Positions 5,625 through 63,227 of a stretch of 64,000 nucleotides of DNA are shown here, one piece after another. Position numbers and translations under genes: made by a program. Within the stretch, counting starts at the first letter, position 1, and every line of letters begins with the position of its first letter. Source of the DNA: an archaeon (GTDB lineage: Archaea > Thermoproteota > Nitrososphaeria > Nitrososphaerales > JACAEJ01); NCBI GenBank assembly GCA_024256285.1, contig JACGUG010000001.1, positions 17,191-81,190 of the forward strand, written 5' to 3'. A model generated the notes under the pieces. It was not told the DNA's origin, ran no database searches, and saw only the letters and a list, made by a program, of their open reading frames with translations.

Positions 5625-6129
5625 GAGAATGGCTCCAGAGAGGGTAAAGGTTACCATAATAACGGTGAGTACTTCAAGATATATGAAGGCTTCTCAAGGC
5701 ATAGCAGTCGACGATCTTTCTGGCTCAAAGGCTGTCGAGATGGTCAAGGAGAGTGGCCATAAGGTAGTATCAAGGAAGTTGGTAAACGATGATAAGGAGA
5801 TGATAAGGCTGGAGGTTCTACGCAGCCTATATGACGAAGGTGCGGATGTGGTGATCTTAACAGGTGGCACAGGCTTGGCAAAAAGAGACGTTACCATAGA
5901 ATCTGTAATTCCACTATTGGATAAGGAGATGAGGGGGTTTGGAGAGATATTTAGGGCTGTGAGTTATCAGAAGATAGGAAGCCCAGCTTATCTATCAAGG
6001 GCTTTGGCTGGTACTTTGAATGGTAAAATTATCTTCTGTCTGCCTGGCTCTCCTCAGGCTGTCGAACTGGCTCTGAGTCTGATCCTACCAGAGTTATCAC
6101 ATATGGTCTACATCACCGGGGTGAACTGA
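5599..6129 (+). CDS. moaB: molybdenum cofactor biosynthesis protein MoaB/MogA family
   Basis: ITVSTSRY...DLSG...VVILTGGTGLAKRDVT...LPGSP motifs. Confidence 0.85.
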   Translation: MSAAYEEHKRMAPERVKVTIITVSTSRYMKASQGIAVDDLSGSKAVEMVKESGHKVVSRKLVNDDKEMIRLEVLRSLYDEGADVVILTGGTGLAKRDVTIESVIPLLDKEMRGFGEIFRAVSYQKIGSPAYLSRALAGTLNGKIIFCLPGSPQAVELALSLILPELSHMVYITGVN

Positions 6130-13703: not shown

Positions 13704-14026
13704 TGATAAAAGTTGATCGCTGTGAACGATGATCGAGGTCGGTCAAGAAATAGATAATTTATTTTAATCGTCTCATCTTTATCTCCTTTAACCTCTTCTT
13801 AAACTCCTTGAGGGACATGGATTCGACCATGGGCAGACCCAGATTCATTGCTACGATCATTACATCTCTAAGCTCTGTCTTGACCAAGTTCTACTCTACC
13901 TCTAACTTTTGGAGCCTTTTTGTAACCTTCTTCACTTCATTTCTAAGCCAACTGGGCCAGTATAGTGTATCCCTCACCATCGGCATCTTCCTTCATCCTC
14001 GATCGATAGTCATTTCTAGAACATGT

Positions 14027-14329
14027 TCATGGCACCGAGCTTCTATAGACCTTGGCTATAGCAAGGGGTTGAGAAGGGTCGTTGTTTATAAAGCAGATTA
14101 CGATGGGTTCGCCGACCTTTAATTCTCCCCTTGTATAATCATCGATCAATTTCTTTGTAGCATAACAATCGAGTTCTACTTTTTCATTCATTATCATTCT
14201 TTTCACTCTTAAAGGTTTATCTTCGCTCGGGTTGATGGATTCTATATGAGCCCAGTAAATCTGACCATAAAACGATAATTCATTTCGAAGTTCGTCCATC
14301 TTTTTCTTGAGATTTTTTAGTATGCGCAT
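14027..14329 (-). CDS. baseplate spike gpV/gp5-like OB-fold protein (tentative)
   Basis: GQIYWAHIESIN...RVKRMI...ELKVGEPIVICFINNDPSQPLAIAKVY resembles the OB-fold N-domain of P2 gpV / Mu gp45 (vGe.V.v.f..gd...p.i). The start lies 4 nt after the upstream stop. Confidence 0.45.
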   Translation of the reverse strand: MRILKNLKKKMDELRNELSFYGQIYWAHIESINPSEDKPLRVKRMIMNEKVELDCYATKKLIDDYTRGELKVGEPIVICFINNDPSQPLAIAKVYRSSVP

Positions 14330-14333
14330 TATT

Positions 14334-15725
14334 TTATTCTACCCCCTCGAGCTTCTTCTCATATTCAGCAAGAATCTCAGCCATACTCAGACTCTTCTTC
14401 TTAAGTTCTAAATCTGTGGTGAGGCTGTCGCTATTCAAAGCGTGGGCATAAGCCTTTACAACGCTCTCCTCAGCATTTAAGCCGACCTGATCACAAGTTA
14501 TAGTCACCTTATCGAAGAGGTTTATCAAGAATAATGAAGGAAGAGAGAGGGATAATTCGTTGCCAGGATCCTTATGTAAAGCTGTAAGACTATCAGCCCT
14601 TTTTTGAGCAGTTGTGTTATCGGTTATGCTCGTATCCGTTTCAGTCCTCTCCCTCAACCAGTAGGCAGACTGACTCGCTGAATCTTCACCTGTTGCCGAT
14701 ACAGCCCCAGAGCCTTTGACGTAGATCTTGTTCAGAATTTCATCTATCTCTCCATGCTCGATCTGTATGATCTCTTCACCCTTTCTTATGGTTATGTTGG
14801 CTCTGGTTTCTTCCGAACTTACAGAAGCAAAGTGAATATCCTTGTTCTCATCAACATAGAAAACATAGCCTTCATCGTCTGCCAGTTGCTTTATAATTTC
14901 ACCAATAGGCTCATCGTTAAAGTCGTAGCTGGCTGTTGAGCCACCGCTAACATGATCGTATGTGAAGGTTCCAGAGAAATACAAATCCACTAAGTCCTTG
15001 ATGATCGCTCCTCTTGTCTGGGCTGAATAGCTCTTGCTCTTCGCCTCTCTGAAGTTGAGCCTCTTTGCATATCCTTGAGCAGATTCTATCTCTAATATCG
15101 ATGGTGGAAACTTCTTTCTTACACTATCAATATAGCCCCTGAAGAGCAGGAAGAGCAAGGCATCGTCGTCCCCTAATCTTATCTCTATCTCTGCTGGAAA
15201 TTCCAAACTGCTAAACTTGTTGCCTACATTCTCAAGTTCCAATGAAGCACAGGGCAGACCGCCTTCCCCATGTTCGATAGAACAAGATAGTATCTCATCG
15301 CTCATCTTGTAGATGACTTCATATCCCTCTTGATACATTATCTCATACACTTTAGTCCCAGATGATCCATGAGTGTTGACCTGAAGCCTTACATACCTCG
15401 CAATAATTTTAGAGAAGATGTGCTCTTTCCATCCGCTACCAGGATCACTAGCTTGATTCAGTAAATGAGCCCAATCTGAGGCGTTTAAAGAATAATCAAG
15501 ATCATAATTTGTAGGTCTATACGCAACATCTGCCCCCCAATAAACCTTAATCCCTGTTATGATCTTTTCTCCACCTAGATCGACATAAATCCAAGCATTA
15601 GCCTCATTTACTGGGTTTGGATACCACATTGATGTAGTGTCATTATCGATAACGTTGTCACTGATCCCCCACCCATACTTGAATGGTGGTATCCCTCGCT
15701 GCATAGTCTGTCCATGAACCGTCAT
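14334..15725 (-). CDS. F5/8 type C (discoidin) domain fused to gpD/gp27-like tail hub domain
   Basis: The N-terminal part (SDNVIDNDTTSMW...AWIYVDLGGEKIITGIKVYW...ARYVRLQV...VYEIMY) fits a discoidin domain. The remainder (LELEN...IEIRLGDD...LFRGYIDSV...ILEIESAQGY...IGEIIKQLADDEGYVFYVDENKDIHF) follows the late-control-D / tail-hub pattern. Confidence 0.6.
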   Translation of the reverse strand: MTVHGQTMQRGIPPFKYGWGISDNVIDNDTTSMWYPNPVNEANAWIYVDLGGEKIITGIKVYWGADVAYRPTNYDLDYSLNASDWAHLLNQASDPGSGWKEHIFSKIIARYVRLQVNTHGSSGTKVYEIMYQEGYEVIYKMSDEILSCSIEHGEGGLPCASLELENVGNKFSSLEFPAEIEIRLGDDDALLFLLFRGYIDSVRKKFPPSILEIESAQGYAKRLNFREAKSKSYSAQTRGAIIKDLVDLYFSGTFTYDHVSGGSTASYDFNDEPIGEIIKQLADDEGYVFYVDENKDIHFASVSSEETRANITIRKGEEIIQIEHGEIDEILNKIYVKGSGAVSATGEDSASQSAYWLRERTETDTSITDNTTAQKRADSLTALHKDPGNELSLSLPSLFLINLFDKVTITCDQVGLNAEESVVKAYAHALNSDSLTTDLELKKKSLSMAEILAEYEKKLEGVE

Positions 15726-15930
15726 ATTTAGTGAAGTCCCCAGCTATGAGATTAGCCGACCAACGGTTGAGCAATACATAGTTAGTTGAGTTTCCACCGC
15801 TGTATTCTGCACATATCCTTACATCGTTGCCCCCCTCAAGTGTTAAATTAAATGTAAATTCATACCCCTTATATGAGGAAGAGGGAATTGTACTAACATT
15901 AACTGTGTCAGGGAGGTTGCAAGAATCGAG
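15658..15930 (-). pseudogene. start-less open frame bridging the two flanking tail-protein ORFs (frame-shifted segment)
   Basis: Manual translation: LDSCNLPDTVNVSTIPSSSYKGYEFTFNLTLEGGNDVRICAEYSGGNSTNYVLLNRWSANLIAGDFTKYDGSWTDYAARDTTIQVWVGDQ*. It is beta-rich and continues the domain begun in ORF 15843..16865. The flanking ORFs 15843..16865 and 14334..15725 share one frame (both low ends are 0 mod 3); this segment is offset by one nucleotide. Confidence 0.45.
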
Positions 15931-16865
15931 CTATCGGATGATTTTCTGATCACACAAGTTAGAGTGCCCGTAGGAGACCCGTACCTTTTGAGCCAGAACT
16001 TTGCCTTAACAACGATTTTATCCGTTATGGTGATCCTGTGCCCTAACCTCTGATTATCGGCAGAACTGAGCCTATCGCTATAACTACCTTCGTTACTGTT
16101 ATCTAATAATAGCCCACTTTCATTACTACTAGCCTTGGTATCGGAAGGGTTAGCATAGGGTTGATAGCCTGGACCGAGCTTGATGGTAGCCCTCTTGCCT
16201 ATCCTATTCCTCTTATTCCCATAGACCTTGAAGTTGTCAAAGTAAGCCTCTCTATCCGTCGTCTGACAGAAGAACCTTACCCTCAGAGATTCACTTCTCG
16301 ATCTGTCGAACTCTTGCGTTGTAGTCCACCTGGTTACTGCTCCTTCCTTTATGGTTACTACGGCCTGATAGTATCCAGTCGATAAATTTAATTCGGTTAT
16401 CTGCAACTCGAAGGTGTAAGAAGTATCTGTAGCCCAAGCGTTGTCGCCTGAATAGACTGCTGCTTGCTCCGACCCATCCTTCACTCTTGTGAGTTTATAA
16501 CATTGAGTATGACCACCATCACTTTCAAAGGCTTCTACTCTAAAGAGGTATTTGCCATAAAAGCTCGTATCCACTATCATCCCATCTTCTATATCAGCAG
16601 TATCTAGTTCTATAGCAAAACCGCCGTCTTTAATCTCAAAGTCAAACTTAACAGTAAAAGGAATACGATACTCAGCCTTCGTCATGACGTTGACCTTTCT
16701 TCCATCTGCTGTTCCTATAGCTTTGAGATGAAGTTGGTTGTTGAGAATCTCCATCAGTTTAGTGGCGAAGGTTGAACCTGCTGGTGATAGGAAGGTCATC
16801 CATCTTCCACGATGAGGGAGAGCGTTATCTAATCCCGTAAAAGTATCCTTAAAGAGTAGTTTCAT
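15843..16865 (-). CDS. ConA/LamG-like lectin-fold protein (tail fibre / receptor-binding candidate), 3' end frame-shifted
   Basis: The N-terminal half ends with ...LRVRFFCQTTDREAYFDNFKVYG, typical of concanavalin-like jelly-rolls. The annotated C-terminal 20 aa (LMLVQFPLPHIRGMNLHLI) look non-native, whereas the alternative frame reads on coherently. Confidence 0.55.
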   Translation of the reverse strand: MKLLFKDTFTGLDNALPHRGRWMTFLSPAGSTFATKLMEILNNQLHLKAIGTADGRKVNVMTKAEYRIPFTVKFDFEIKDGGFAIELDTADIEDGMIVDTSFYGKYLFRVEAFESDGGHTQCYKLTRVKDGSEQAAVYSGDNAWATDTSYTFELQITELNLSTGYYQAVVTIKEGAVTRWTTTQEFDRSRSESLRVRFFCQTTDREAYFDNFKVYGNKRNRIGKRATIKLGPGYQPYANPSDTKASSNESGLLLDNSNEGSYSDRLSSADNQRLGHRITITDKIVVKAKFWLKRYGSPTGTLTCVIRKSSDSSILATSLTQLMLVQFPLPHIRGMNLHLI

Positions 16866-16866
16866 T

Positions 16867-17214
16867 TTATATCGCCATCAACACGCTAGCCTTTGCCCAT
16901 GACGAAGGTGAATCGACGGGACCTAAAGTGTAACCATCGGCCACAAGGTAATCGTTTACGATCTTTATCTTAGGCTTTGGGAGAGCATTAACGATGTCCT
17001 TGAACTCTTCCTCGATCATCTCCTTTTCGCTCTTCTCTTTGTTCCTCCTCGATCTTTGAGTACAATTCAATAGATGTAACTTAAAGACCGTGGCTTGTCT
17101 CCTCGCTATTCTTTCTCGAAATTCTTCTGGAAAGTCCTTTCTCTTTTTTACTGCCAGATGGGCTGCTAGATGATATAGGGCTGTCTGGGCTTGAGCACTG
17201 AACTCGCTTGAAAG
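16867..17214 (-). CDS. hypothetical virion-module protein; open frame extends 48 codons upstream of the only canonical start (TTG 17070)
   Basis: The frame is open from 17214: LSSEFSAQAQTALYHLAAHLAVKKRKDFPEEFRERIARRQATVFKLHL-LNCTQRSRRNKEK... The ALYHLAAHL..KR motif is reminiscent of gp6-like head-tail adaptors. The stop abuts the next ATG (TAAAATG). Confidence 0.35.
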   Translation of the reverse strand, partial: LSSEFSAQAQTALYHLAAHLAVKKRKDFPEEFRERIARRQATVFKLHLLNCTQRSRRNKEKSEKEMIEEEFKDIVNALPKPKIKIVNDYLVADGYTLGPVDSPSSWAKASVLMAI

Positions 17215-17795
17215 TCATCCCCAGCATAAGCAACATCGGTGAAGGCTACATCGGCTACGTCTATCATCTCTTCAAGGTCTTCAATAATATCGATAGTCTC
17301 TTCTACACTCTCTCCTACTTGTTCTACTTGCCTAGCCGCTTTACCTGCTGCTTTACCGAATAGACCGGTTTGTTGTCTTGCTTCAGCCATGGCACCGCTT
17401 ACTTCTGCTTCATAAGCCAACCATATCATAACTGCCCCTGCTGTTAAGGCTGCTACTACTTCGCCAACAGTTATAGCCAAACCTTTGATCGATGCTGCTG
17501 TGATCGTTGCTGTTATGCCCATCTCTTTCATGACGTTAGAAAAGCTTGATACTGCTGTTATGGCTGCTGGCCCCATCTGGATCAACATCTCGACTTGGGC
17601 TTCCCTAACTTTATCTGTCTTATCAGCCAAGTCTTCCTCAGCCGTTACGACCTTCTGCTCAGCAAGCTCTAACTTCTCTAAGGCCAACCTTGCTTCGTTG
17701 CTGTTCTCTCTGTATTTCTCAACAGCTTTATTATAAGATTCTAAGGCACTCTTGGCGGTGAGAGAAATGGTAGCCTCCAGTCCTCGTCCTCTCAT
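17166..17795 (-). CDS. coiled-coil plus hydrophobic-segment protein (tape-measure or scaffold-like fragment)
   Basis: An N-terminal heptad-like region (ALESYNKAVEKYRENSNEARLALEKLELAEQKV...) is followed by Ala/Gly-rich hydrophobic stretches and an acidic tail. The start overlaps the TerL-like ORF by 65 nt. Confidence 0.5.
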   Translation of the reverse strand: MRGRGLEATISLTAKSALESYNKAVEKYRENSNEARLALEKLELAEQKVVTAEEDLADKTDKVREAQVEMLIQMGPAAITAVSSFSNVMKEMGITATITAASIKGLAITVGEVVAALTAGAVMIWLAYEAEVSGAMAEARQQTGLFGKAAGKAARQVEQVGESVEETIDIIEDLEEMIDVADVAFTDVAYAGDDFQASSVLKPRQPYII

Positions 17796-18921
17796 ATTCT
17801 ATGCAGTTCAATGAACCAAGAAATTGGGTATCCTGTGGCAATGAGACCTTTCTCTGCTCGAAGAGAATCCTGAGGTTTGAGAGCAACTCCTCCCTGAACT
17901 TCTGGGTCAAGTTGAAGCCATCGACGGGCAAGTCCAGTTCTCTGGCATGTTCAACTATAGGGTTACCCAGACCTGTCATATCTATGGCCAGGCTCTTAAA
18001 TCGAAACTTCTTATGTAGGTCGGCTATCTCGACCGTGAATTGAGTGTATGGAATATCTTTGACTCCTCTGAAATACAGGGTATAAAGGTGGTCTTTCAGA
18101 CGTTCAATAACTACAAGGGCTGCCAAAGACTCCTTCCCGCCTGGGTCGTAACCAGCAAAGTACTCTCCACCCAATCTTGATTCCTCTAAACATTCATCGA
18201 TACAAGGTCTCAAGAGGGTCATAGGAAAGTAAGACCTACTATCATCGACGAACTCAGCAAGATATTCAAGGCGGTATCTTTCTTCTCCTATCAACTGCCT
18301 CTGCTCATCCAAGAACTCCTCTTTTATCAAGGGATTTTTAGAGCTTGGAAAGTGGTAGACGCTCCAATCTTTAGAGTTAAAGCATCTGTAAGTTATGTGG
18401 TCTCTATCCCAAGGCGTAGTAAGCATCCATATCTTTCCCTTGGTAGTTGTGAGCATGGGAAAGATGGCGTTGGCGATGACTTCATCATAGATGAATGAGG
18501 CTTCGTCTATAACGGCAAAATGAACGGTCAATCCCCTTAAGGTCGATCCATAACGTCCAGAGGGTAGACAGACGATCCTTGAGTTATTTTTGAAGATTAT
18601 CTGAGTCCTCGTCATCCTTTTCACTGAGTTACGAAGGATCGACGAGTTTATGAAGCCCAGAACCTTGTTGAAGGTCTCCATGCTCTGCCTCAAAGTTGCA
18701 GATACTACGATGCTCGTCGTCTTAGGGTTGGTTACAGCGAAGCGAAGGAGTTTTATGGCTGAGCATGTAGATTTTCCGACTTGACGGCCACAGATGGCTA
18801 TGAGCCTATCAGATTCATCTTCAAGAATCCTATCTTGGTAGTCGAAGGGATAGAATTTGAGGATCAGTCTTGAGAAGAGTACAGGATCGTCTTTTAGTGC
18901 CTTTAGCTTCTCCTTCTCCAA
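17731..18921 (-). CDS. terL: terminase large subunit-like ATPase/nuclease
   Basis: Walker A CGRQVGKS, Walker B HFAVIDEASF, coupling motif MLTTP, RNase-H-like nuclease start YFAGYDPGGKESLAALVVIE. The C-terminus (..GGYHFSHRQECLRIL) lacks the usual final acidic nuclease motif. Confidence 0.8.
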   Translation of the reverse strand: MEKEKLKALKDDPVLFSRLILKFYPFDYQDRILEDESDRLIAICGRQVGKSTCSAIKLLRFAVTNPKTTSIVVSATLRQSMETFNKVLGFINSSILRNSVKRMTRTQIIFKNNSRIVCLPSGRYGSTLRGLTVHFAVIDEASFIYDEVIANAIFPMLTTTKGKIWMLTTPWDRDHITYRCFNSKDWSVYHFPSSKNPLIKEEFLDEQRQLIGEERYRLEYLAEFVDDSRSYFPMTLLRPCIDECLEESRLGGEYFAGYDPGGKESLAALVVIERLKDHLYTLYFRGVKDIPYTQFTVEIADLHKKFRFKSLAIDMTGLGNPIVEHARELDLPVDGFNLTQKFREELLSNLRILFEQRKVSLPQDTQFLGSLNCIEYERTRTGGYHFSHRQECLRIL

Positions 18922-19148
18922 ACCTTCTCCCTACCCTTTGCGAAGTACCAACCTATGACCAGACCGTAAGGCTCACCCATTATTGCAGCAACCATCATAA
19001 CCGCTTCTGTACCAGACAAAAGCATGGCTACTAGGAGCAATGCTATGTACCCTGCAGTAGATATCAGGGCTATGAGCCCCCTCCAGTCGCCCTCGATCCA
19101 CCTTACCTCATCCTTCTTGACGATGAGCTTACCTTCCTTCTCAGCCAT
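18903..19148 (-). CDS. small two-TM membrane protein
   Basis: 81 aa with two hydrophobic helices (LIALISTAGYIALLLVAMLL, AVMMVAAIMGEPYGLVIGWYF). Overlaps the TerL-like start by 19 nt. Confidence 0.5.
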   Translation of the reverse strand: MAEKEGKLIVKKDEVRWIEGDWRGLIALISTAGYIALLLVAMLLSGTEAVMMVAAIMGEPYGLVIGWYFAKGREKVWRRRS

Positions 19149-19154
19149 ATTCCT

Positions 19155-19550
19155 TCACACCCTTATACAGACTATCTTCAACCCTCCGTCTTTCAAAGGC
19201 TCGAACTTCTGTACTCTACCGAGCTTGATTCTTTTCGATCTTAGACTCTTGATAGTTTTCTGGGCCGTCTTCTCGTCTATCATCTTTATCCTCATAGCAA
19301 TCCCTAAAGGAACGGATGTTATATCGTGGGCGTCTTCATCCGTGATTTCGTTGCTTATGATCAGATGAGGCTCACGGTAGCGATGGTCCTTGAATATTCC
19401 TACAAACCGACCTACAGACTTCTTATAGGTTGCGAAGGTCTTGTTATTGAAGGATCTTACATTCTGTGTTACGCAGGCATCTATCCATAAGACTTCTATC
19501 AGGCAACCCTTCTTCAACTTGGGCAGCACATCTTGCACTATCTTCCTCAT
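19155..19550 (-). CDS. hypothetical protein (virus-like module)
   Basis: 131-aa ORF tightly packed with its neighbours. No family recognised. Confidence 0.5.
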   Translation of the reverse strand: MRKIVQDVLPKLKKGCLIEVLWIDACVTQNVRSFNNKTFATYKKSVGRFVGIFKDHRYREPHLIISNEITDEDAHDITSVPLGIAMRIKMIDEKTAQKTIKSLRSKRIKLGRVQKFEPLKDGGLKIVCIRV

Positions 19551-19831
19551 CCATCAGTAACCTCCAAGATCTTGAATAGTTTCTTCGCCTGCTTCTCAGG
19601 TAAGTCCAACTCAGAAAGTAGCTCAGACAGGCTCTTACGATCCGCAGTCTCTATCCCTACCTCCCTCAGTACTTTAAGGAGGGCGCCATACAGAGAGGCT
19701 AGGACTCTGGCATAATTTATGAGCTTCTTCTCGCTTCTGGTCTTTCTAGCCTTTTCATTTATCTTATCGATAAGAGCCGATATCTCACGGATGATGTCTA
19801 TCGCGTTCTTGTCGATTTCATCATGGCCCAA
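19547..19831 (-). CDS. hypothetical helical protein (position compatible with small terminase / DNA-binding)
   Basis: 94-aa all-helical ORF, first gene of the module. Has a 4-nt overlap with the next ORF. Confidence 0.45.
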   Translation of the reverse strand: MGHDEIDKNAIDIIREISALIDKINEKARKTRSEKKLINYARVLASLYGALLKVLREVGIETADRKSLSELLSELDLPEKQAKKLFKILEVTDG

Positions 19832-19941: not shown

Positions 19942-20241
19942 TTAAGCCATCTTCAACATCGACTTGAGCAGGTCCCTATACTCGATCTTTTCTAGAGAAC
20001 TGCTAGGAGCAGGTATCTCGTATATCAGAGGGACGGCCTGTTTTGTCCTTATATCTGTAAGTTTACTGCGAATAGGTCTTCCTGCATCATCGCTAACCAA
20101 GATCAAGCCTACCTCTTTGTCCTGCATCATCTTCATGATCTCCTTTAAGGCTTCTTCAGAGGTTTTGACCTCTATCCCAGCCACGCCAGCCAGCCTGAAA
20201 CCTGTTACAAAGCTCCTCTTGCCTACTGCTAATACACGCAT
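19942..20241 (-). CDS. atpF: A/V-type ATP synthase subunit F
   Basis: MRVLAVGKRSFVTGFRLAGV...GLILVSDD...PLIYEIPAP matches subunit F. Confidence 0.85.
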   Translation of the reverse strand: MRVLAVGKRSFVTGFRLAGVAGIEVKTSEEALKEIMKMMQDKEVGLILVSDDAGRPIRSKLTDIRTKQAVPLIYEIPAPSSSLEKIEYRDLLKSMLKMA

Positions 20242-20347: not shown

Positions 20348-20704
20348 CTATTCGCCGAGTAAGGTCTTTAAAACCATCTCTACCGCTTTATCGTAGACGC
20401 CTTTTATCTTAGCCTTTAGCTCTTCGATCTCTTCATTGCCTTTGGCCAAGATCTTTTCTGCCTCCTTCTCAGCCTCAGCCTTTATATTGGCCAGATCCTC
20501 TTCTGTCTTCTTTTTAGCCTCTTCCAGAACTTCACTTCTCGACTTTCCAGCCTCCTTTTGCGCCAAGGATGAGAGTTCATTTTTCGTCTCCTTGATCTTT
20601 GCCTTCGTCTCATCCAGCTCGTTCTCCATTTCGTACAATGGTACCATCATATCTTCAATTTTAGGACTTGTCTGTTCGCTCAAAACCACCACTGAGTCCA
20701 GCAT
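20348..20704 (-). CDS. atpH: A/V-type ATP synthase subunit H (peripheral stalk, coiled coil)
   Basis: E/K/A-rich coiled coil ending ...KGNEEIEELKAKIKGVYDKAVEMVLKTLLGE, as in archaeal AtpH. Confidence 0.65.
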   Translation of the reverse strand: MLDSVVVLSEQTSPKIEDMMVPLYEMENELDETKAKIKETKNELSSLAQKEAGKSRSEVLEEAKKKTEEDLANIKAEAEKEAEKILAKGNEEIEELKAKIKGVYDKAVEMVLKTLLGE

Positions 20705-20733
20705 AATGGGTTATTAAATTTTCTCAATCTTGG

Positions 20734-20755
20734 TTCTGTTAAGTTAAGGGACATA
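20734..20755. repeat. left terminal inverted repeat
   Basis: Exact 22-nt match to the reverse complement of 21154-21175. Confidence 0.9.
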
Positions 20756-21153
20756 GATTAAGTCGCTTCAGGATTTCATCAACAGTCTTTAAAATGATCT
20801 CAACTCAAAGGAAATAATCATACTCTATCCTCAAGACCTTGAACAAAGGAGAGAATTACTTAACACAACTATCTTTAAAGTAAGCCAAGTTCTTGGCATA
20901 TAGACTTTGCTTCAATGTATCCTGGATGGCATGATATTTGATATGAAAGTAGAAAATCGCTTCCAAATCTTACCTCTGATGCTTGACTTTCTTATGATAA
21001 TGATCCAAAAGGTTCTTTTTCCCTTCAAGATAAGCCCTCATAGAATTTTCGACCCATCTATGTTCAATTTCTTCTATCGATTTTCTTATCTTTGTTTTAA
21101 CCATATCCCGTATTTGTGTAAGGGGGATATATAGAAATTTAGTTACTACGTGG

Positions 21154-21175
21154 TATGTCCCTTAACTTAACAGAA
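21154..21175. repeat. right terminal inverted repeat
   Basis: Exact 22-nt match to the reverse complement of 20734-20755. Confidence 0.9.
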
Positions 21176-21229
21176 ACTAAATAGTATATATTTAATAACT
21201 TATCAATTGAATTAGGTACGGTAGGGGCT

Positions 21230-21544
21230 ATGCCAGGAAAGAGAATAAAACTGTTCAAGCCAGAGTTAGCCATCCTCTACTCCCTCTTCTATCGAGGAGG
21301 AAGGGCGAAGATGTCCCGCTTGATGGCAGACACCAACATGTGCACTGCCATGTTCTACAACTATGCCGACCTACTTGTTGAAAAGGGGCTGATCGAGAAG
21401 GGAGAACTGAAGACCGCCAAACCCACCGATGATGAACTTCTGTTCGCCGAATACAGGTTGACCCCAAAGGGCAAGAGAAAGATCAAGAGGATGATAAAGA
21501 GGCACACGCCAGAACTGGTTTATGCCATTATGAGTCAAGAATGA
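21230..21544 (+). CDS. winged-helix DNA-binding protein
   Basis: 104 aa. AILYSLFYRGGRAKMSRLMADTNMCTAMFYNYADLLVEKGLIEKG has wHTH-like spacing; basic C-terminus. Confidence 0.55.
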   Translation: MPGKRIKLFKPELAILYSLFYRGGRAKMSRLMADTNMCTAMFYNYADLLVEKGLIEKGELKTAKPTDDELLFAEYRLTPKGKRKIKRMIKRHTPELVYAIMSQE

Positions 21545-21683
21545 CAGAGAGAACAATCCTTCTTAAACTTCTCCAAGACGTACATGAGTTATAGAATGGA
21601 ACCGATTCACTTTACTGATCCCAGTATGAAAATTTTTAAACTAAACTTAATTAGCTCCTTAACCTAATGTATAGTGAGGAAGA

Positions 21684-22208
21684 ATGCGCGGAAGAAATTA
21701 CAGAGAGATAAAAGGGCATGCTTATGTAAGGAGGGAGTTCATACCGAGCATCCCACGGAATAAGATAGCCAAATTCAATATAGGCACCCCTAGTCAAGAC
21801 TATGATTTTAAACTCGAGCTAAGAGCGAAAGAAAGGGCTCAGATAAGGCATAATGCTCTTGAAGCTGCAAGAGTAGCTGCAAACAAGAAGTTATCAGATA
21901 TAGATGCCACCAACTACCACCTTCTAGTCAAGGTCTATCCTCATGTCGTGTTAAGAGAGAATAAGATGTTAGCCATGGCAGGCGCAGATAGGCTTCAAGA
22001 GGGCATGAGGAAGGCTTTTGGGAAGCCAGTAGGTTTGGCTGCAAGGGTGGAGATCGATGGTATTATCTTAGAAGTGAGCTCAAAGATGGAGAACTTAAAG
22101 GAGGCGAAAGAGGCTCTTAAAGTAGCAGCAAGTAAACTACCCATCCCAACTTATGTAAAAAAGGTTCTTTTAAAACAAACAAAGGTAGAGGGGCAAACAT
22201 CTGGTTAG
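21684..22208 (+). CDS. rpl10e: 50S ribosomal protein L10e (uL16)
   Basis: MRGRNYREIKGHAYVRREFIPSIP...IRHNALEAARVAANK. Confidence 0.95.
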   Translation: MRGRNYREIKGHAYVRREFIPSIPRNKIAKFNIGTPSQDYDFKLELRAKERAQIRHNALEAARVAANKKLSDIDATNYHLLVKVYPHVVLRENKMLAMAGADRLQEGMRKAFGKPVGLAARVEIDGIILEVSSKMENLKEAKEALKVAASKLPIPTYVKKVLLKQTKVEGQTSG

Positions 22209-22272
22209 GCGTCCTTTATTAATTAAATTCCTTTAAATGAATAAGTAAGTTTGTGGGCACTATAAGTTTTAA

Positions 22273-23283
22273 GTGGTCTGCATGATCTGGATAGATGAAG
22301 ATAAGATCATCTCGGAGATTGAAAAAAGGGGGCCCAAGATCGTTGTATTCAATGCACCCAACGGTCTTCTGATAAAGACGGAAGAACTGGCATCAAAGAT
22401 TCAAAGATCATTCGGTGTGCAAACTATAACGATCGCTGATCCATGCTATGGTATATGTGATACTGTTGATGAGGAAACCGAGAAGTTAGGAGCAGATATA
22501 GCATTCCACATAGGTCACAATGTTGCTGTAGAAAAGATTGGCAAAAAGACGATATTGATAGATGTGGTAGATGATGTAAATTTTGATGAAGTCTTAAAAG
22601 CTTCCCTAATGACTTTTAAGGGCTACAAGAAGGTTGGGTTGTGTACAATCAGTCAACATATTCATCAGATCGAAAAAGCCAGATCCTTCTTACAGAAAAA
22701 CTGCATCGAAGTAATCATAGGTAAAGGAAGGGGGTTTATGAAGGATGGACAGGTCTTAGGGTGTGATTTCTCTACAGCTTTTGATGTTAGAGAAAATGTT
22801 AATGTCTTTGCCTTCCTTGGTCAGAGCTTATTTCATGCAACAGGAATAGCCTTGGCTACAGGCAAGCCCACATTTATGCTAGATCCGTATTATAAAGAGG
22901 TTGTAGATGTTACGCCATCAGCTTTACAGATGTTAAAGAGAGCTATACTTTCCATCTACAAAGCCCTAGATGCCAACAATATCGGAATCATAATAGGGTT
23001 AAAAGAGGGGCAGACAAGGTTAGAGAGGGCTCGGAAGATCAGGGACGAACTTAAAAGGCATGGGAAGAAAGTTTCTCTTATAGCGTTACATGAAGTCACT
23101 AATGAAAGGTTGACTCAACTACAGAATATGGACGCATTCATACAAACTGCCTGCCCTAGAATATCCATAGGTGGAGAAAACTTCAATAAGCCTGTTCTGG
23201 CAATACCTCAAGCAGAAGCCCTTATCGATATATTAGATGGGAAGGGGTGTGAAAAGATCTTCCAAAGGAGCAGATGGGTTTAA
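22273..23283 (+). CDS. dph2: 2-(3-amino-3-carboxypropyl)histidine synthase Dph2 (diphthamide synthesis)
   Basis: Length and motifs (...ITIADPCYGICD..., ...FIQTACPRI...) fit archaeal Dph2. Confidence 0.85.
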   Translation: MVCMIWIDEDKIISEIEKRGPKIVVFNAPNGLLIKTEELASKIQRSFGVQTITIADPCYGICDTVDEETEKLGADIAFHIGHNVAVEKIGKKTILIDVVDDVNFDEVLKASLMTFKGYKKVGLCTISQHIHQIEKARSFLQKNCIEVIIGKGRGFMKDGQVLGCDFSTAFDVRENVNVFAFLGQSLFHATGIALATGKPTFMLDPYYKEVVDVTPSALQMLKRAILSIYKALDANNIGIIIGLKEGQTRLERARKIRDELKRHGKKVSLIALHEVTNERLTQLQNMDAFIQTACPRISIGGENFNKPVLAIPQAEALIDILDGKGCEKIFQRSRWV

Positions 23284-23318
23284 AGATTACTTTATAAGCA
23301 GATATTAAGATATACTCT

Positions 23319-23912
23319 ATGATTTTGACAGCTAATCAATCAAATATAGGAAAAATGAAGAAAACAATCCCAGGAGATAGACTCGCTGTGATAGAGGAGT
23401 TTAACGCTAGCGAAGGGGCTTATATAGATAAGGATACGATTAGGGCGTCGAGACTGGGTATAGCGGATTATGATATTAGGAGAAGAGAAATTAAGATAGA
23501 ACCATCACGGAAGGTAAAAAATGTGCCAATGGTTGGGGACAATGTTATAGGACAAGTAGAGGCGGTGCAAGGCAATATAGCTAACATAAGAATTTATTAT
23601 ATCAATGATAGGAGAAGTTCTAGCGGATTTACGGGGATGCTTGTTTTAAGGTCTGGGCGATCGCCTAGAAAAAGTGGAAGAAAAACAACAATATTAAAGT
23701 TTGGTGATATCGTCAAAGCGAAGGTTACAAGTTATAAAAATTCTATTATCCATTTGTCTATAACTGCCAATGAGAGTGGTGTGATATATGCTACATGTAG
23801 CTCATGTGGGGGGAGTACTGAAAGGTTAGATCAAAAAATAAAATGCATGAATTGTGGGTTGATTGAAGAGAGGAAGTTTGCGTCTGACTTCGGTGAAGTT
23901 TACCTAAAGTAA
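23319..23912 (+). CDS. csl4: exosome complex RNA-binding subunit Csl4
   Basis: PGDRLAVIEEF N-terminal domain, S1-like centre, C-terminal Zn-ribbon CSSCGG...CMNCG. The likely real start is ATG 23355 (MKKTIPGD). Confidence 0.85.
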   Translation: MILTANQSNIGKMKKTIPGDRLAVIEEFNASEGAYIDKDTIRASRLGIADYDIRRREIKIEPSRKVKNVPMVGDNVIGQVEAVQGNIANIRIYYINDRRSSSGFTGMLVLRSGRSPRKSGRKTTILKFGDIVKAKVTSYKNSIIHLSITANESGVIYATCSSCGGSTERLDQKIKCMNCGLIEERKFASDFGEVYLK

Positions 23913-24011
23913 TGAGTTATAGATCGAATTCGATTTTCTTGAGGAAATGTAATCACTTCTCTCTTAAAAGGAAAATTCTTATTAACCTGCTTCGATCATG
24001 ATGACTAACCA

Positions 24012-24302
24012 ATGGAGCTCAAAGTACTTTCCAATGCTAACAAGACTTTACTTATGTATATAGAGGATGAGGACACATCTATACCTGAGGTAATCCATCA
24101 CGAACTCCTAGAAGATGAGCATATAGTATTTGCCGGTGTTATAAAACAACATCCATTGCTAAATAGACTTACTATGAGAATTCAAACAAAGAATATCGAA
24201 CCTGTAGATGTCTTGGTTTCCAGCAGTTTAAAAGCAGTAGAAAGATCGGCTGAAATGCTCTCAGAAGTAAAAAGGAGTTTTGGTGATATAAAAAGAGGAT
24301 GA
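24012..24302 (+). CDS. rpoL: DNA-directed RNA polymerase subunit L (Rpo11)
   Basis: MELKVLSNANKTLLMYIEDEDTSIPEVIHHELLED...FAGVIKQHPLL. Confidence 0.85.
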   Translation: MELKVLSNANKTLLMYIEDEDTSIPEVIHHELLEDEHIVFAGVIKQHPLLNRLTMRIQTKNIEPVDVLVSSSLKAVERSAEMLSEVKRSFGDIKRG

Positions 24303-24310
24303 TGTAAAAG

Positions 24311-24649
24311 ATGCAGTTCTGTGAAAAATGTGGTACAAAGCTTAAGTTTAAACAGATTAAGATTGGTGGTACCTTATTCCCCGGTTTAGCCTGCGATAAA
24401 TGTGGTTTTTACACAAGAATAGAAAAGGTTACGGCTAAACCAGAGGAAAGCGCATCAAGAACCCACATAAAAGTGCTTGGAGATGAAGCGGATGAAATTA
24501 AGACATTACCTACCACAACTATAGAATGCCCTAAATGTGGCAATATGACTGCATATTGGTGGTTCCTTCAAACCAGAAGTGGTGATGAGCCGCCCACTCA
24601 ATTCTACAGATGCACAAAATGTAACTACACTTGGAGATTATACGCCTAA
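24311..24649 (+). CDS. tfs: transcription factor S (TFS / RpoM family)
   Basis: N-terminal Zn-ribbon CEKCG...CDKCG and a C-terminal ribbon with CPKCG...QTRSGDEPPTQFYRCTKC, including the acidic DE hairpin. Confidence 0.85.
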   Translation: MQFCEKCGTKLKFKQIKIGGTLFPGLACDKCGFYTRIEKVTAKPEESASRTHIKVLGDEADEIKTLPTTTIECPKCGNMTAYWWFLQTRSGDEPPTQFYRCTKCNYTWRLYA

Positions 24650-24744
24650 CTTTAAAGATTTTCATACCGGGGATCAGAGATAAAGTGAAGATGGAATTTA
24701 ACTCATGTATATCTTGGAGAATTCATAGCCTTTTCTAAAATCTC

Positions 24745-35746: not shown

Positions 35747-35825
35747 GAGTGCCTCCAGCTTGGGTTATCGATCTGCAAATCTCTCCCTAGATCTACTCTA
35801 CGTAAGCTCTGTCAGGTATATACTC

Positions 35826-36050
35826 TTAATACTGTTTTGAAGAATAGCTCCAGACAACCAAAGCTACAATGGTTACTATAGAGCCAACTACCCCAGATAT
35901 GATAGCACTTAAGAGATAAGCCTCTATGTTGAGCAGGGCGGGATATATCTGTACCAATACTTCCTTGAGAGCATCAAGGGCTAGGAAGCCGACGAAGCCT
36001 ATTACGAACCCTACCAATCCTAATCCTAACATTGCAGTAATTCTACGCAT
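35826..36050 (-). CDS. small membrane protein
   Basis: 74 aa with two hydrophobic helices. Confidence 0.4.
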   Translation of the reverse strand: MRRITAMLGLGLVGFVIGFVGFLALDALKEVLVQIYPALLNIEAYLLSAIISGVVGSIVTIVALVVWSYSSKQY

Positions 36051-36186
36051 AGGTAATCGCTATGAGTTCATATCCGCGCTATATATGACAAAGGGAGAAG
36101 GATGGTTTACTTTGGTGATAAAAAAAATTGATAGTAGAAAACCCTGAAGATGCAAAACTCATATATCTCTCAACTTAAACCATATT

Positions 36187-43040: not shown

Positions 43041-43101
43041 TAACTTAAGTTAAAGATAAAACAATAACATTAAAATTATAACCCTAAATTGCTATAAGAT
43101 C

Positions 43102-58587: not shown

Positions 58588-58608
58588 CTTTATCGATTCT
58601 CTTCTAGC

Positions 58609-58615
58609 AATTTAT
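58609..58615 (-). promoter_or_regulatory. TATA-like box for a re-initiated L19e-...-cmk transcript
   Basis: The minus strand reads ATAAATT 22-28 nt upstream of the rpl19e TTG start. The spacing suits a leaderless archaeal promoter. Confidence 0.3.
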
Positions 58616-58667
58616 CGAGCCAAGGCCCGCTCTACTTTCCCAATAGTTACACTCCCTTAAATCTTTC

Positions 58668-58693
58668 TTAAGATAGACTTTTAAGATAGACTT
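58668..58693. repeat. perfect 13-bp tandem duplication (ttaagatagactt x2)
   Basis: Read directly at the left edge of the island. Confidence 0.85.
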
Positions 58694-58807
58694 GGTCTGG
58701 GTTGGAATTTCTACCCACCGTCTTTTTTAAACTTTCGATCTTAAAAGTATGGATTTATGTTTTATCAGCGAGTCAGAACTCCAAAATCACTATTTTATCG
58801 ACATCTG

Positions 58808-59066
58808 TTAACTTACGGCGCTTGTCCCCGTTCGTATTATCGGGATTATATGAAGGTATATTGGCGAAGTCTCCAAGACTCTTTTTTGGCTTATGTCGAA
58901 TACCTTCCCTATCTCTTCCTGAGTGCGCCCTTCTGAAGATAATTCGTCATCTGATGACGAATTGACGAATCCATTTTTTGCCCATGGTTATGCGCTCTAC
59001 TTCACGATCACGCTCAGATCCACGTTTGAGATCCTTACCGGTACGAATTTTGGCGCTAGAAGACAA
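58808..59066 (-). pseudogene. fragmented helix-turn-helix gene (resolvase/transposase-type HTH) split over two frames
   Basis: Frame 1 (59066-58947): MSSSAKIRTGKDLKRGSERDREVERITMGKKWIRQFVIR*. Frame 2 (58987-58808): ...SSSDDELSSEGRTQEEIGKVFDISQKRVLETS...*. The EGRTQEEIGKVFDISQKRV part is a classic HTH. Confidence 0.35.
58941..58963. repeat. 23-bp perfect palindrome AATTCGTCATC-T-GATGACGAATT
   Basis: Read directly. It is followed by a third GACGAAT copy at 58964-58970 and lies at the frame break of the HTH remnant. Confidence 0.85.
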
Positions 59067-59134
59067 GACTAGCGAATGGGAAGATGCAAACTAAATACAT
59101 ATTAAACAACACAATAATCCCCTTTTGACTTGAC

Positions 59135-59766: not shown

Positions 59767-59958
59767 CTCTATAATCGATAATAATTTTGAGTATTAATTT
59801 TTTCTTGCTAAATCTATTCCAATTAGAATATTTATGTTTTGGCAGTAGCAGATCACAGGTCCTTATCATGCCTGAATATCCACTTCTTTATCAGACCTTC
59901 AAAGCCCCTCATTATCAGAAGTGCCGAAGACAAGGCGAGCAGGTCTGGAAAATTGCAA

Positions 59959-60045
59959 TTATGACATCGCCCCGCCGACGAGCGTTATGACGGTTAGGCC
60001 GATGAGGATGCCAAGCCAGAACTCTTGGATGAGTTGTTTCTTCAT
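59959..60045 (-). CDS. possible 28-aa hydrophobic peptide
   Basis: Manual translation: MKKQLIQEFWLGILIGLTVITLVGGAMS*, a single TM helix. The ATG overlaps the end of the upstream small basic ORF. Confidence 0.25.
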   Translation of the reverse strand: MKKQLIQEFWLGILIGLTVITLVGGAMS

Positions 60046-60197
60046 CCAGCATTTACGGTCTCACCTTCTCCCAGGCTTCCTGCAAAGCTTCTTCTCTGCT
60101 CTTGACCAGCTTGCTGGCACGCTTCATGATCCTTGAGAGCTTCCCTGGTTTTCTTCCTAGGTCTACCCTTCTTCTTTGTCTTCCTTTTCTTCGGCAT
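60042..60197 (-). CDS. possible small basic AT-hook-like protein (51 aa as read; alternative C-terminus in another frame)
   Basis: MPKKRKTKKKGRPRKKTREALKDHEACQQ... has a GRP AT-hook core. From 60127 a second frame reads MKRASKLVKSREEALQEAWEKVRP*, which looks more protein-like, so a 1-nt indel is possible. Confidence 0.3.
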   Translation of the reverse strand: MPKKRKTKKKGRPRKKTREALKDHEACQQAGQEQRRSFAGSLGEGETVNAG

Positions 60198-60561
60198 CTA
60201 ACCTCTAAGTATAAAAGTGCAGAAAATCACCTTACTTCATGATTGAGCACTAACCATCAAAGATGCATTTTTTATTGATGAGTGGAAAGGAGTGCCCTGA
60301 CTTCTGAGGGCTGGGTGGAACCGGATATGAAAGCTCCAAAGATTATCCTCGCTCTTCCCCACTGGCGTGTTGGTTTTCGGTGACTTGGCGCCGGGCGCCC
60401 TACAGAGATCGATAAAGAGCAGGTGTTGGTTACTTCGGGAAGCGCATTAATACTTATGAACAATTCGTACTAAAGATCATGTACATATAACCATTCTAGA
60501 ACCATTCTATAAGTAATATGTCTATATATTTAGACTCTTCCTTTACATTTGAGGTTAGAGC

Positions 60562-60984: not shown

Positions 60985-61014
60985 TTAGTTACTCCAAGAA
61001 GCGTTTAACTTAAC
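60985..61014. repeat. sequence related to the right end of the 20734-21175 element
   Basis: ttagttactcc-N9-ttaacttaac here versus ttagttactac-N12-ttaacttaac at 21139-21170. Confidence 0.4.
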
Positions 61015-61038
61015 TTAATTTACGGGAGGCGAGGCAAA

Positions 61039-62340: not shown

Positions 62341-62673
62341 GTTAATTCCATAAGAAAAACCAACTGGTTGGTAGGGCTGAAAAGGCAACTAGCAGAAGGG
62401 GGCGAATACCATAGATTTATTTTAATTGAATGGCAAATAGGAGTGCCCACCGAGATTCGAGTCTATTTTGTCATAAAAATGGACTCAATTAAAATAACAA
62501 TAGTTTGGAGTGGGGATAGATAAATTAAATAAATATTTAGAAAATTTTCTCTATAATCTCTGAATTTGTGAAATTAAGCCGAATATCTTTAATAAAAAAT
62601 CATGGCGGAATGACGTTATATGCCTCCCGCCAGATCTCTTCGACATCTCACAAGTATGCTTCCCATCAGAAGC

Positions 62674-62870
62674 TTACTCAGACTTCTCTTCCTTTTCTAC
62701 GGTTTCGACTATCTGGCCGTTGGCATATCTGTTTCCTACTTGTACGATCTTGATTCTTGTTCGCTGTCCAGCTTTGGCTTGGGGGACGAAGATTACAAAT
62801 CCTTCAACTCTCGCTATCCCGTCGCCACGTCTGCTGAGCCACTACCGCGTCCGTAACTCGTATTTTTCAA
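62674..62870 (-). pseudogene. TRAM-domain gene, N-terminally truncated and frame-shifted
   Basis: Open frame 62841-62677: WLSRRGDGIARVEGFVIFVPQAKAGQRTRIKIVQVGNRYANGQIVETVEKEEKSE*, the canonical TRAM core GDGIARVEGFVIFVP. It is preceded by an in-frame TAG (62844-62842). The TTG start with an AAGGAG upstream (62870) is in another frame (MKNTSYGRGSGSADVATG*). The usual first beta-strands (PV..G.eYev.I) are missing. Confidence 0.6.
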
Positions 62871-62936
62871 CTCCTTGCGTTTAGTTACGCTGAATAAGAT
62901 TAGAAACCCTCATATATATCTATATCCTTGTAGGCA

Positions 62937-63047
62937 TGGCGCATATGGGTTCATTAGAGAACGTCTGGTCTAGGATGGTGCAGCCCATAAGAGGGGTGAG
63001 GTTTGAACCCACGAAGCCTGCACGCTTATGTAGGAGGTGGGGCGCCA
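62937..63047. ncRNA. candidate structured RNA / tRNA-like fragment
   Basis: GC-rich, ORF-free. TGGCGC (62937-42) pairs with GCGCCA (63042-47), and TGGGTTCA (62946-53) pairs with TGAACCCA (63004-11). On the minus strand, GTGGG-TTCAAAC-CTCAC (63012-62996) looks like a tRNA T-arm, but no acceptor or anticodon arm could be built. Confidence 0.3.
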
Positions 63048-63227
63048 GACCTTTGGTTTATGTAGTGATGAAATCCTTCAAACACCTTCTCATCAGTCGA
63101 CAATGAAGATGTGTTATCCAAAAACTATTCATCACTTTCATCACATTCTCACACCAATTTGGTTCTTTAAATAATATTATTTATTTAATATAACTGCCTG
63201 TAGAGCGACCTAAATAATGCTTTCTTT

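Follow-up and report, generated by a model that had tools for sequence, protein, structure and literature searches.

In the genome of an archaeon of the class Nitrososphaeria, a perfect 22-nucleotide (nt) inverted repeat encloses a stretch of DNA between a probable ATP synthase gene and a gene for a small winged-helix (wHTH) protein. What is this segment, and does it move, invert, regulate its neighbors, or merely keep them apart? The first-pass annotation had proposed that it is either a non-autonomous transposon or a piece of DNA that a recombinase can invert to switch expression. We examined the segment within the whole 64,000-nt stretch of DNA under analysis (here called the window) and compared it with the corresponding locus in related archaea. 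Our tentative answer is that a unit with inverted ends was inserted here once, became fixed, and survives as a relic that is now passive spacer DNA.

A perfect inverted repeat between two TATA-like boxes

The left arm, TTCTGTTAAGTTAAGGGACATA, occupies positions 20734 to 20755, and the right arm, TATGTCCCTTAACTTAACAGAA, its exact reverse complement, occupies positions 21154 to 21175; both the coordinates and the sequence of the repeat were verified. The two 22-nt arms and the 398-bp interior (20756 to 21153) together make up a unit of 442 bp. In a repeat scan, this pair was the only outstanding repeat across the whole 64-kb window. One hundred dinucleotide shuffles of the window yielded no arm match, even when up to 3 mismatches were allowed, and we estimate the probability that chance alone would place two perfectly complementary 22-nt arms less than 500 nt apart somewhere in 64 kb at approximately 1e-5 to 1e-6, in keeping with the earlier claim that a chance match is negligible. 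The perfect repeat is real and far beyond chance.

To the left of the segment, on the minus strand, lies a probable A/V-type ATP synthase subunit H gene (atpH; 20348 to 20704). Its product matches the V/A-type subunit H model weakly (NCBIfam E value of 1.5e-8, under the cutoff), and its start differs among annotations, giving 111, 113, or 118 amino acids. The next gene beyond it, also on the minus strand, is atpF (19942 to 20241), identified by Pfam as ATP synthase subunit F. To the right, on the plus strand, positions 21230 to 21544 encode a 104-amino-acid winged-helix protein that passes Pfam HTH_45 and shows a weak match to the Sso10a family. Given the subunit H match, the subunit F gene next door, and the HTH_45 result, the names atpH and wHTH that the two flanking genes had received are reasonable. 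wHTH is the first gene ahead of L10e-dph2-csl4-rpoL-tfs on the plus strand, and its homologues form only 5 clusters in 5.8 billion proteins. The closest named homologue belongs to Ca. Methylarchaceae archaeon HK0x, whose lineage is an mcr-bearing order within the class Nitrososphaeria (PMC9478090). The window species is a Ca. Methylarchaeales archaeon and, we infer, a congener of Ca. Methanoinsularis haikouensis, hereafter the sister species. Absent from that species is a 6,065-bp island with a terminase, found at positions 13747 to 19811 of the window.

When extended outward, the inverted repeat reaches an ungapped length of 46 nt with 83% identity (20710 to 20755 and 21154 to 21199). This extension is owed almost wholly to a 10-nt box (GTTATTAAAT/ATTTAATAAC) situated exactly 14 nt beyond each arm; the 14-nt stretches between arm and box match each other at only 6 of 14 positions. 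Upstream of atpH, the TATA-like box ATTTAATAAC lies at 20710 to 20719 on the minus strand, and upstream of wHTH the same box lies at 21190 to 21199 on the plus strand, 31 nt before the ATG; both are putative promoter elements. The atpH box is invariant in the sister species, represented by HK01M, and in a third species, termed species C, and the wHTH box is conserved in HK01M, species C, and L006. The distance of exactly 14 nt between an arm and its ATTTAATAAC box holds on both sides in the window species and in HK01M. Within the window, TTTAATAAC is present only at the two boxes, and a similar box, ATATATTTAATTCC, lies upstream of another window gene. The segment had been described as filling the promoter space of the two divergent genes; it does not occupy all of that space, and both genes have their conserved TATA-like boxes beyond its ends.

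The locus in related species

A Logan contig of the same strain from another sample is 99.98% identical to the window over 11.6 kb and has the same arrangement. In the sister species, Ca. Methanoinsularis haikouensis HK01M, the locus is carried by two metagenome-assembled genomes (MAGs) and one Logan contig and comprises atpF-atpH and wHTH with a spacer of equal length between them, the whole interior being in the same orientation. The first-pass annotation had named a spacer shared with relatives and a single orientation as signs against a mobile or invertible element. The spacer and both arms are indeed present at the orthologous site in HK01M, and the orientation was identical in all five independent full-length assemblies of the two species, each a consensus assembly. 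A search for an inverted arrangement among contigs carrying the 44-amino-acid open reading frame (ORF) of the interior or AtpH returned only the same Logan contig.

Comparison of the window species with HK01M gave 87.6% identity and 6 indel positions for the interior, and the third codon positions of five flanking genes are 78 to 88% identical. The arms are no more conserved than the interior: the left arm is identical at 20 of 22 positions (91%), and the right arm, with 4 substitutions and a 1-nt indel, is 82% identical. Since these values resemble the rate at third codon positions, the spacer and the arms appear to drift approximately neutrally. With 2 changes in one arm and 5 in the other, the repeat of HK01M itself is matched at only about 16 of 22 positions.

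We used a relative-rate test on the flanking genes, with species C as the outgroup, to place changes on the two lineages; 58 fell on the window lineage and 110 on that of HK01M. If the ancestral repeat was perfect, the window lineage should have accumulated about 1.9 changes over the 44 bases of the two arms, and the probability of observing none is approximately 0.15; by our calculation, the probability that all 7 arm changes lie on the HK01M side is approximately 0.05. These values make it acceptable, if only borderline, that the repeat was still perfect shortly before the split and has decayed neutrally since. Alternatively, the arms may have been made identical in the window lineage instead of staying intact there. 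The atpH-wHTH arrangement was found in three species only, a sample in which arm changes are not reliably polarized. As we read the HK01M right arm, three of its five changes jointly form a local dyad, GTTCC...GGGAAC, which hints at a template-switch-type mutation in the region.

In species C (L011, plus L008, L009, and L014), a spacer of 294 bp separates atpF-atpH from wHTH. Species C keeps both boxes and about 14 nt adjoining each, and homology with the window stops within 2 to 3 nt of the outer edges of the arms. About 200 unrelated bases stand in place of the segment; the site holds other DNA and is not an empty site. Compared in both orientations, these bases do not resemble the window interior (z = -0.03 and 1.33), despite third codon positions that are still 59 to 75% identical between the two species. 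An 8-nt part of the right arm, TAACTTAA, recurs in species C, roughly as far from the wHTH box as in the window, and part of the right arm may for this reason predate the supposed insertion; short AT-rich matches to species C gave conflicting alignments.

Copy number, target site, and mobility genes

Neither the 22-mer, at up to 3 mismatches, nor its 16-nt core was found beyond the two arms in the 64-kb window. Relaxed blastn and nhmmer searches with the 525-bp spacer revealed no diverged copy in the window or in approximately 50 kb of related loci. The exact 22-mer did not occur in 185,579 GTDB species genomes, IMG/VR, or JGI metagenome contigs, collections that do not include the window genome. 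A relaxed arm pattern, TTCTGTTAANTTNAGGGACATA, in which any base is allowed at the two positions differing in the sister species, matched one site in the 185,579 GTDB genomes, namely, the orthologous left arm on HK01M contig JAKLZD010000008.1; because it recovered this arm, the scan works. No second copy of TTCTGTTAANTTNAGGGACATA was present in the HK01M MAG. In the window and in the public collections, which were scanned for exact matches to the tried patterns only, the repeat is thus unique apart from the orthologous HK01M site, a result that the first-pass annotation had said would count against both of its readings. Three conserved interior words had no match in IMG/VR, and blastn with the spacer gave no match in phage and plasmid collections.

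No target-site duplication was found, as had been noted before: in the window, CTTGG abuts the left arm and ACTAA the right arm, and the corresponding bases in HK01M are CTTAT and CCTAA. These flanks share no direct repeat, the best candidate being an imperfect CTTA/CTAA in HK01M. A scan of approximately 55 window ORFs detected no transposase, integrase, invertase, or tyrosine or serine recombinase. The only recombinase found in the window is the general recombinase RadA (967 to 1971).

MITEs are normally multicopy, and archaeal examples are SM1 to SM4 of Sulfolobus (PMC10969869). Like MITEs, the segment is small (442 bp), AT-rich, and intergenic, lacks coding capacity, ends in terminal inverted repeats of IS-like length (22 nt, matching at 22 of 22), and forms a discrete unit that is missing at the same locus in a related species. 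Unlike MITEs, it has no detectable second copy, no target-site duplication, and no partner IS with matching ends in the 64-kb window and the collections scanned; moreover, other DNA rather than an empty site is found in species C, and the segment has been fixed in two species long enough for approximately 12% divergence. Since three defining tests failed, we do not file the segment as a member of a MITE family; it is at most a solitary MITE-like relic. The proposal of a transposon survives in a weakened form, as that of a single old insertion that can no longer move.

A possible fixed relic of a single insertion

The explanation that we tentatively prefer takes the segment as single-copy, non-coding DNA between the core promoters of the divergent atpH-atpF and wHTH-L10e units. 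Its entry into the spacer would have been a single event in an ancestor that the window species shares with HK01M, either as a MITE-like non-autonomous element bearing terminal inverted repeats or through some similar one-off insertion. The segment would have been inherited vertically since then and would now be immobile, its ends being still perfect in the window species because that lineage evolves about half as fast as HK01M. Its only present role would be that of a passive spacer separating two promoters whose boxes lie just outside.

An old, inert insertion is favored because the segment is single copy, has one orientation, and drifts neutrally. The relic best fits this drift, the discrete boundaries relative to species C, and the absence of coding capacity described below, and the lack of any match in phage, plasmid, or viral collections is consistent with it. 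The relic does not account for three features, namely, the lack of a duplication, the presence of other DNA in species C, and the precise symmetry of the 14-nt distances. Against the relic, neither a target-site duplication nor a second copy or partner IS was found, and a simple insertion does not explain the difference from species C, since that species has other DNA at the site. The exact 14-nt symmetry would be a coincidence of a few percent, unless the dyad center was targeted, and the probability of approximately 0.05 for arm changes confined to one lineage is borderline. If the relic is the true explanation, the segment is one more fossil insertion in an intergenic spacer and of little consequence. 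It also serves as a caution that a perfect inverted repeat alone does not indicate a mobile element or a switch.

Arms as possible mirrored regulatory sites

The symmetry about the two promoters is what recommends the main alternative, in which the arms are mirror-image cis-regulatory sites and each promoter carries the same 46-nt module, composed of a 22-nt box, a 14-nt spacer, and ATTTAATAAC. A DNA-binding protein, plausibly the adjacent Sso10a-like wHTH protein, would bind both arms and coregulate atpH-atpF and the wHTH operon, possibly by looping the spacer of approximately 400 bp. AraC and DeoR are looping regulators, and archaeal activators of the Lrp/Ptr2 type bind upstream of BRE/TATA. 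As in paired operators or UAS, the locus has identical mirrored arms, each 14 nt upstream of a TATA-like box, beside the gene of a small winged-helix DNA-binding protein. The exact register of the arms with both conserved boxes holds in the window species and in HK01M. Moreover, the arm core CCTTAAC[CT]TAA has a third copy approximately 25 nt upstream of the L10e start (21657 to 21667; site CCTTAACCTAA), which is retained in HK01M as CCTTAACTTAA, and the looser CTTAACNTAA has just four sites in the window. That species C has TAACTTAA comparably placed ahead of its wHTH gene also agrees with a regulatory role.

Nonetheless, although the position of the arms relative to the promoter boxes is fixed, their conservation does not exceed the neutral rate: the right arm has accumulated 5 changes in 22 nt between two species, and the left arm of HK01M has a disrupted TTAANTTAA. 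It is rare for a binding site to require 22 identical bases, a length beyond that of the usual recognition site, and the arms as such are missing in species C though both promoters are conserved there. With up to 3 mismatches allowed, the rest of the window yielded no further arm sites, and the motifs were counted post hoc in AT-rich sequence. The regulatory explanation thus accounts for the symmetry and the third CCTTAAC[CT]TAA copy and is contradicted by the unconserved arms. We rate it below the relic and consider it somewhat unlikely. If the arms are binding sites, they would define a regulon joining ATP synthase stator genes to a ribosomal and RNA polymerase cluster in an uncultured methanogen lineage.

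Possible inversion and recombination between repeats

Inverted repeats also invite recombination. A site-specific recombinase encoded elsewhere, or homologous recombination, could act on the arms, flip the 398-bp interior, and hold the arms identical by conversion; an internal promoter would then face atpH or wHTH depending on the orientation. To this explanation we give a low probability. Archaeal invertons exist but are little studied (bioRxiv 10.1101/2023.03.11.532203), and very few have been reported. Like invertons such as fimS of E. coli, the segment has inverted repeats that flank a few hundred intergenic, non-coding bases with a possible internal promoter. That candidate is a TATA-like sequence, TTCTATATAT, which by our reading lies just inside the right arm on the minus strand (21127 to 21136).

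Two properties of the arms are consistent with conversion. They are identical inside a neutrally drifting spacer, with all 7 differences from HK01M on one lineage (P of approximately 0.05), and, as we read it, 4 of the 5 differences in the HK01M right arm fall at sites where the window has the state of the HK01M left arm. In contrast to invertons, the segment was seen in a single orientation in the five full-length consensus assemblies available from the two species; the scan of approximately 55 window ORFs gave no gene for a tyrosine or serine recombinase; and the arms exceed typical invertase sites in length and have degenerated in HK01M, where they match at just 16 of 22 positions. Furthermore, flipping would not disconnect the promoter boxes of the flanking genes, because both lie outside the segment, and the candidate internal promoter, which is altered in HK01M, runs into a hairpin and a T-run downstream. 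Nothing positive emerged for the recombinase-invertible switch proposed in the first-pass annotation, and the single orientation seen, the lack of a recombinase among the scanned ORFs, the degenerate sister arms, and the outlying boxes all speak against it.

The window contains a second inverted pair, of approximately 75 nt, around the L10e-tfs block (21566 to 24735). The core of this pair has apparently been exchanged reciprocally between the two copies since the species split, and its consensus RNA structure contains no predicted base pairs. The core exchange suggests that recombination between inverted repeats does occur here, and to that extent it supports inversion. There is a slender chance that recombination keeps the arms identical and that the spacer and the neighboring 3-kb L10e-dph2-csl4-rpoL-tfs block flip over population or evolutionary time. 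If inversion proves true, the segment would be an addition to the very few archaeal invertons reported, and flipping would mean that a methanogenic archaeon of the Nitrososphaeria has an inversion system for which the 64-kb window yielded no recombinase.

A live MITE family as an unlikely alternative

It is also improbable that the segment belongs to a live MITE family of low copy number or high divergence, with other copies and an autonomous IS beyond the 64-kb window that exact-match scans missed. The length of 442 bp, the 22-nt inverted ends, the non-coding interior, and the intergenic position fit MITEs (PMC10969869), and the collections were scanned by exact pattern only and do not contain the window genome. 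On the other side, the relaxed pattern found the orthologous HK01M arm alone in 185,579 species genomes, blastn and nhmmer detected no diverged copies in the 64 kb and approximately 50 kb of relatives, and the locus is fixed and orthologous in two species, with no target-site duplication.

The interior and its open reading frame

The interior (20756 to 21153) is non-coding, evolves at about the neutral rate, and was found only in the window species and HK01M. It had been called AT-rich, and its GC content is indeed 33.9%; this value is nonetheless ordinary for the other intergenic spacers of the window (31 to 45%; mean, 37%), and AT-richness is therefore not diagnostic. The 44-codon minus-strand ORF, at 20970 to 21104, is present as previously quoted and ends in TAA, but the open codons past this stop number 37, not 38. 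Overall, the minus frame of the interior has 3 stops in 133 codons, compared with approximately 9.6 expected (P of approximately 0.07), and the three stops of this longer frame are common to the window species and HK01M.

The ORF is not a conserved gene. In HK01M its ATG is ATA, and the frame is disrupted by 1-nt indels and extra stops. Interior substitutions relative to HK01M are spread over minus-frame codon positions without bias (14/11/14), and the interior had no match in Pfam, PHROG, or NCBIfam. When the 117-residue conceptual translation was compared with 1.84 billion representative proteins, three matches were obtained; two were the translation itself and a 49-amino-acid HK01M fragment, and the third, a 27-residue stretch of an 1,813-amino-acid protein (E value of 3e-4), is probably spurious. 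At gathering thresholds, Rfam detected nothing in the whole window, and at an E value of ≤10 it gave only two chance-level matches over the spacer; no tRNA was found. HK01M lacks both the start codon and an intact frame, and neither a codon-position bias nor a protein or RNA family was detected; the interior is therefore not a gene, and the earlier judgment that it holds no convincing gene stands. A pseudogene was considered on account of the few minus-frame stops, three of them shared with HK01M, and was rejected, as there is no family and no codon-position bias. The interior shows no sign of a transposase remnant.

A small transcription unit on the minus strand, from approximately 21104 to approximately 20884 and yielding a 44-amino-acid peptide or a non-coding RNA, is very unlikely. 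The TATA-like sequence is centered approximately 27 nt upstream of the ATG, the usual distance for archaeal leaderless mRNAs; the 44-codon ORF was called by gene callers; and the scarcity of minus-frame stops given above points the same way. Approximately 220 nt downstream, a GC hairpin followed by a T-rich run resembles a terminator (20884 to 20897, minus strand), and its stem is kept in HK01M, but one such structure was found in comparison with 1.2 expected by chance. Against a peptide stand the lost start, the broken frame, the even spread of substitutions over codon positions, and the absence of a homologue past the sister fragment in the 1.84 billion representatives. Against an RNA, no Rfam family was found, and folding is ordinary once the terminal stem is set aside: the low z-score of the whole unit is due only to the terminal 22-bp stem, and a 251-nt interior stretch folded alone gave a z-score of 0.28.

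An unlikely replication origin

A chromosomal replication origin, with the arms as origin-recognition boxes around an AT-rich unwinding element, would match archaeal oriC (ORB repeats around a DUE) in the inverted repeat around 398 bp at 34% GC, the long divergent spacer with its switch in gene orientation, and a local cumulative GC skew minimum near 20 to 21 kb, but we ruled it highly unlikely, since no Orc1/Cdc6 gene is adjacent or among the scanned ORFs (the sole nearby AAA+ gene looks like RFC), the single repeat pair does not resemble ORB sequences and is not joined by further ORB or mini-ORB copies, the AT content is ordinary for local intergenic DNA, the segment evolves neutrally and its sequence is not conserved in species C, and the skew makes no lasting switch, turning again at 25, 34, and 46 kb as it tracks the gene strand.

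An inverted pair of elements brackets the L10e-dph2-csl4-rpoL-tfs block

The 3-kb L10e-dph2-csl4-rpoL-tfs block is bracketed by a second inverted pair, made up of elements of ~75 nt. One copy lies on the plus strand just 3' of the stop codon of the winged-helix (wHTH) gene (21566 to 21649), and the other lies on the minus strand immediately 3' to the genes for the methyltransferase and TFS (24642 to 24735). Each genome piece carries two copies, for which no consensus RNA structure was predicted. In the comparison with the sister species, "Ca. Methanoinsularis haikouensis" HK01M, copy A of the sister matched copy B of the window at 92% identity over its central ~55 nt; unlike this central part, the outer ends of the copies follow location. 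The pattern looks like a reciprocal exchange between the inverted copies, of the kind expected from two inversions in succession that crossed over at different points, but the reverse pairing between the species is only about 73% alike, which leaves the exchange a tentative reading.

Divergence of the right arm in HK01M and occurrence of the arm core motif

In HK01M, the right arm of the 22-nt inverted repeat between atpH and the wHTH gene (positions 5940 to 5965 of L003, the HK01M sequence with the orthologous locus) is now a local near-palindrome, GTTCCTTAATTTAAGGGAAC. It arose via three of the five right-arm changes, one of them the replacement of adjacent CA by GG, which suggests a template-switch-like mutation. 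Changes in the flanking genes between the window and L003 were assigned to lineages with L011, a sequence of a third species, as the outgroup. The HK01M lineage carried 110 changes versus 58 in the window lineage, about twice as many. Those of the HK01M lineage were AT biased (G>A and C>T), and those of the window lineage were mostly A>G and T>C.

Near the arms lie the ends of two short Logan contigs: L002 (window 21148 to 22176) begins 6 nt within the boundary of the right arm, and L005 begins 12 nt beyond the left arm of the sister species. Their end positions do not match the precise point at which an inversion should branch, and their closeness to the arms could be due to chance or to an assembly-graph branch.

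The arm core motif, TTAAC[CT]TAA, recurs in the window upstream of L10e (21657 to 21667), in the spacer ahead of the gene at 43102 (43045 to 43053), and as a tandem TTTAACTTAACTTAA (61005 to 61018) 21 to 34 nt before the ATG at 61039. The motif may be a promoter-type element of the window organism.

Genomic surroundings of the inverted repeat

Several stretches of 440 to 839 bp (35747 to 36186, 58588 to 59134, 59767 to 60561, and 62389 to 63227) contained no ORF of at least 90 amino acids, no Rfam match, and no tRNA.

A block of 6,065 bp (13747 to 19811), 0.9 kb from the inverted repeat, was missing from the sister species by blastn, and there the adenylosuccinate lyase gene directly adjoins atpF. 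The block contains genes for a terminase large subunit (17731 to 18921) and a 463-amino-acid protein that carries an F5/8 type C domain and weakly resembles tail proteins (14334 to 15725), along with several further ORFs without families. No integrase was seen in it. The block is probably a provirus remnant.

The genes for ATP synthase subunits H (20348 to 20704) and F (19942 to 20241) stand without other A-type ATPase genes alongside in all three species. The annotated start of subunit H varies, giving proteins of 111, 113, or 118 amino acids, and the longest version places the start codon only 5 nt from the TATA-like ATTTAATAAC box outside the left arm.
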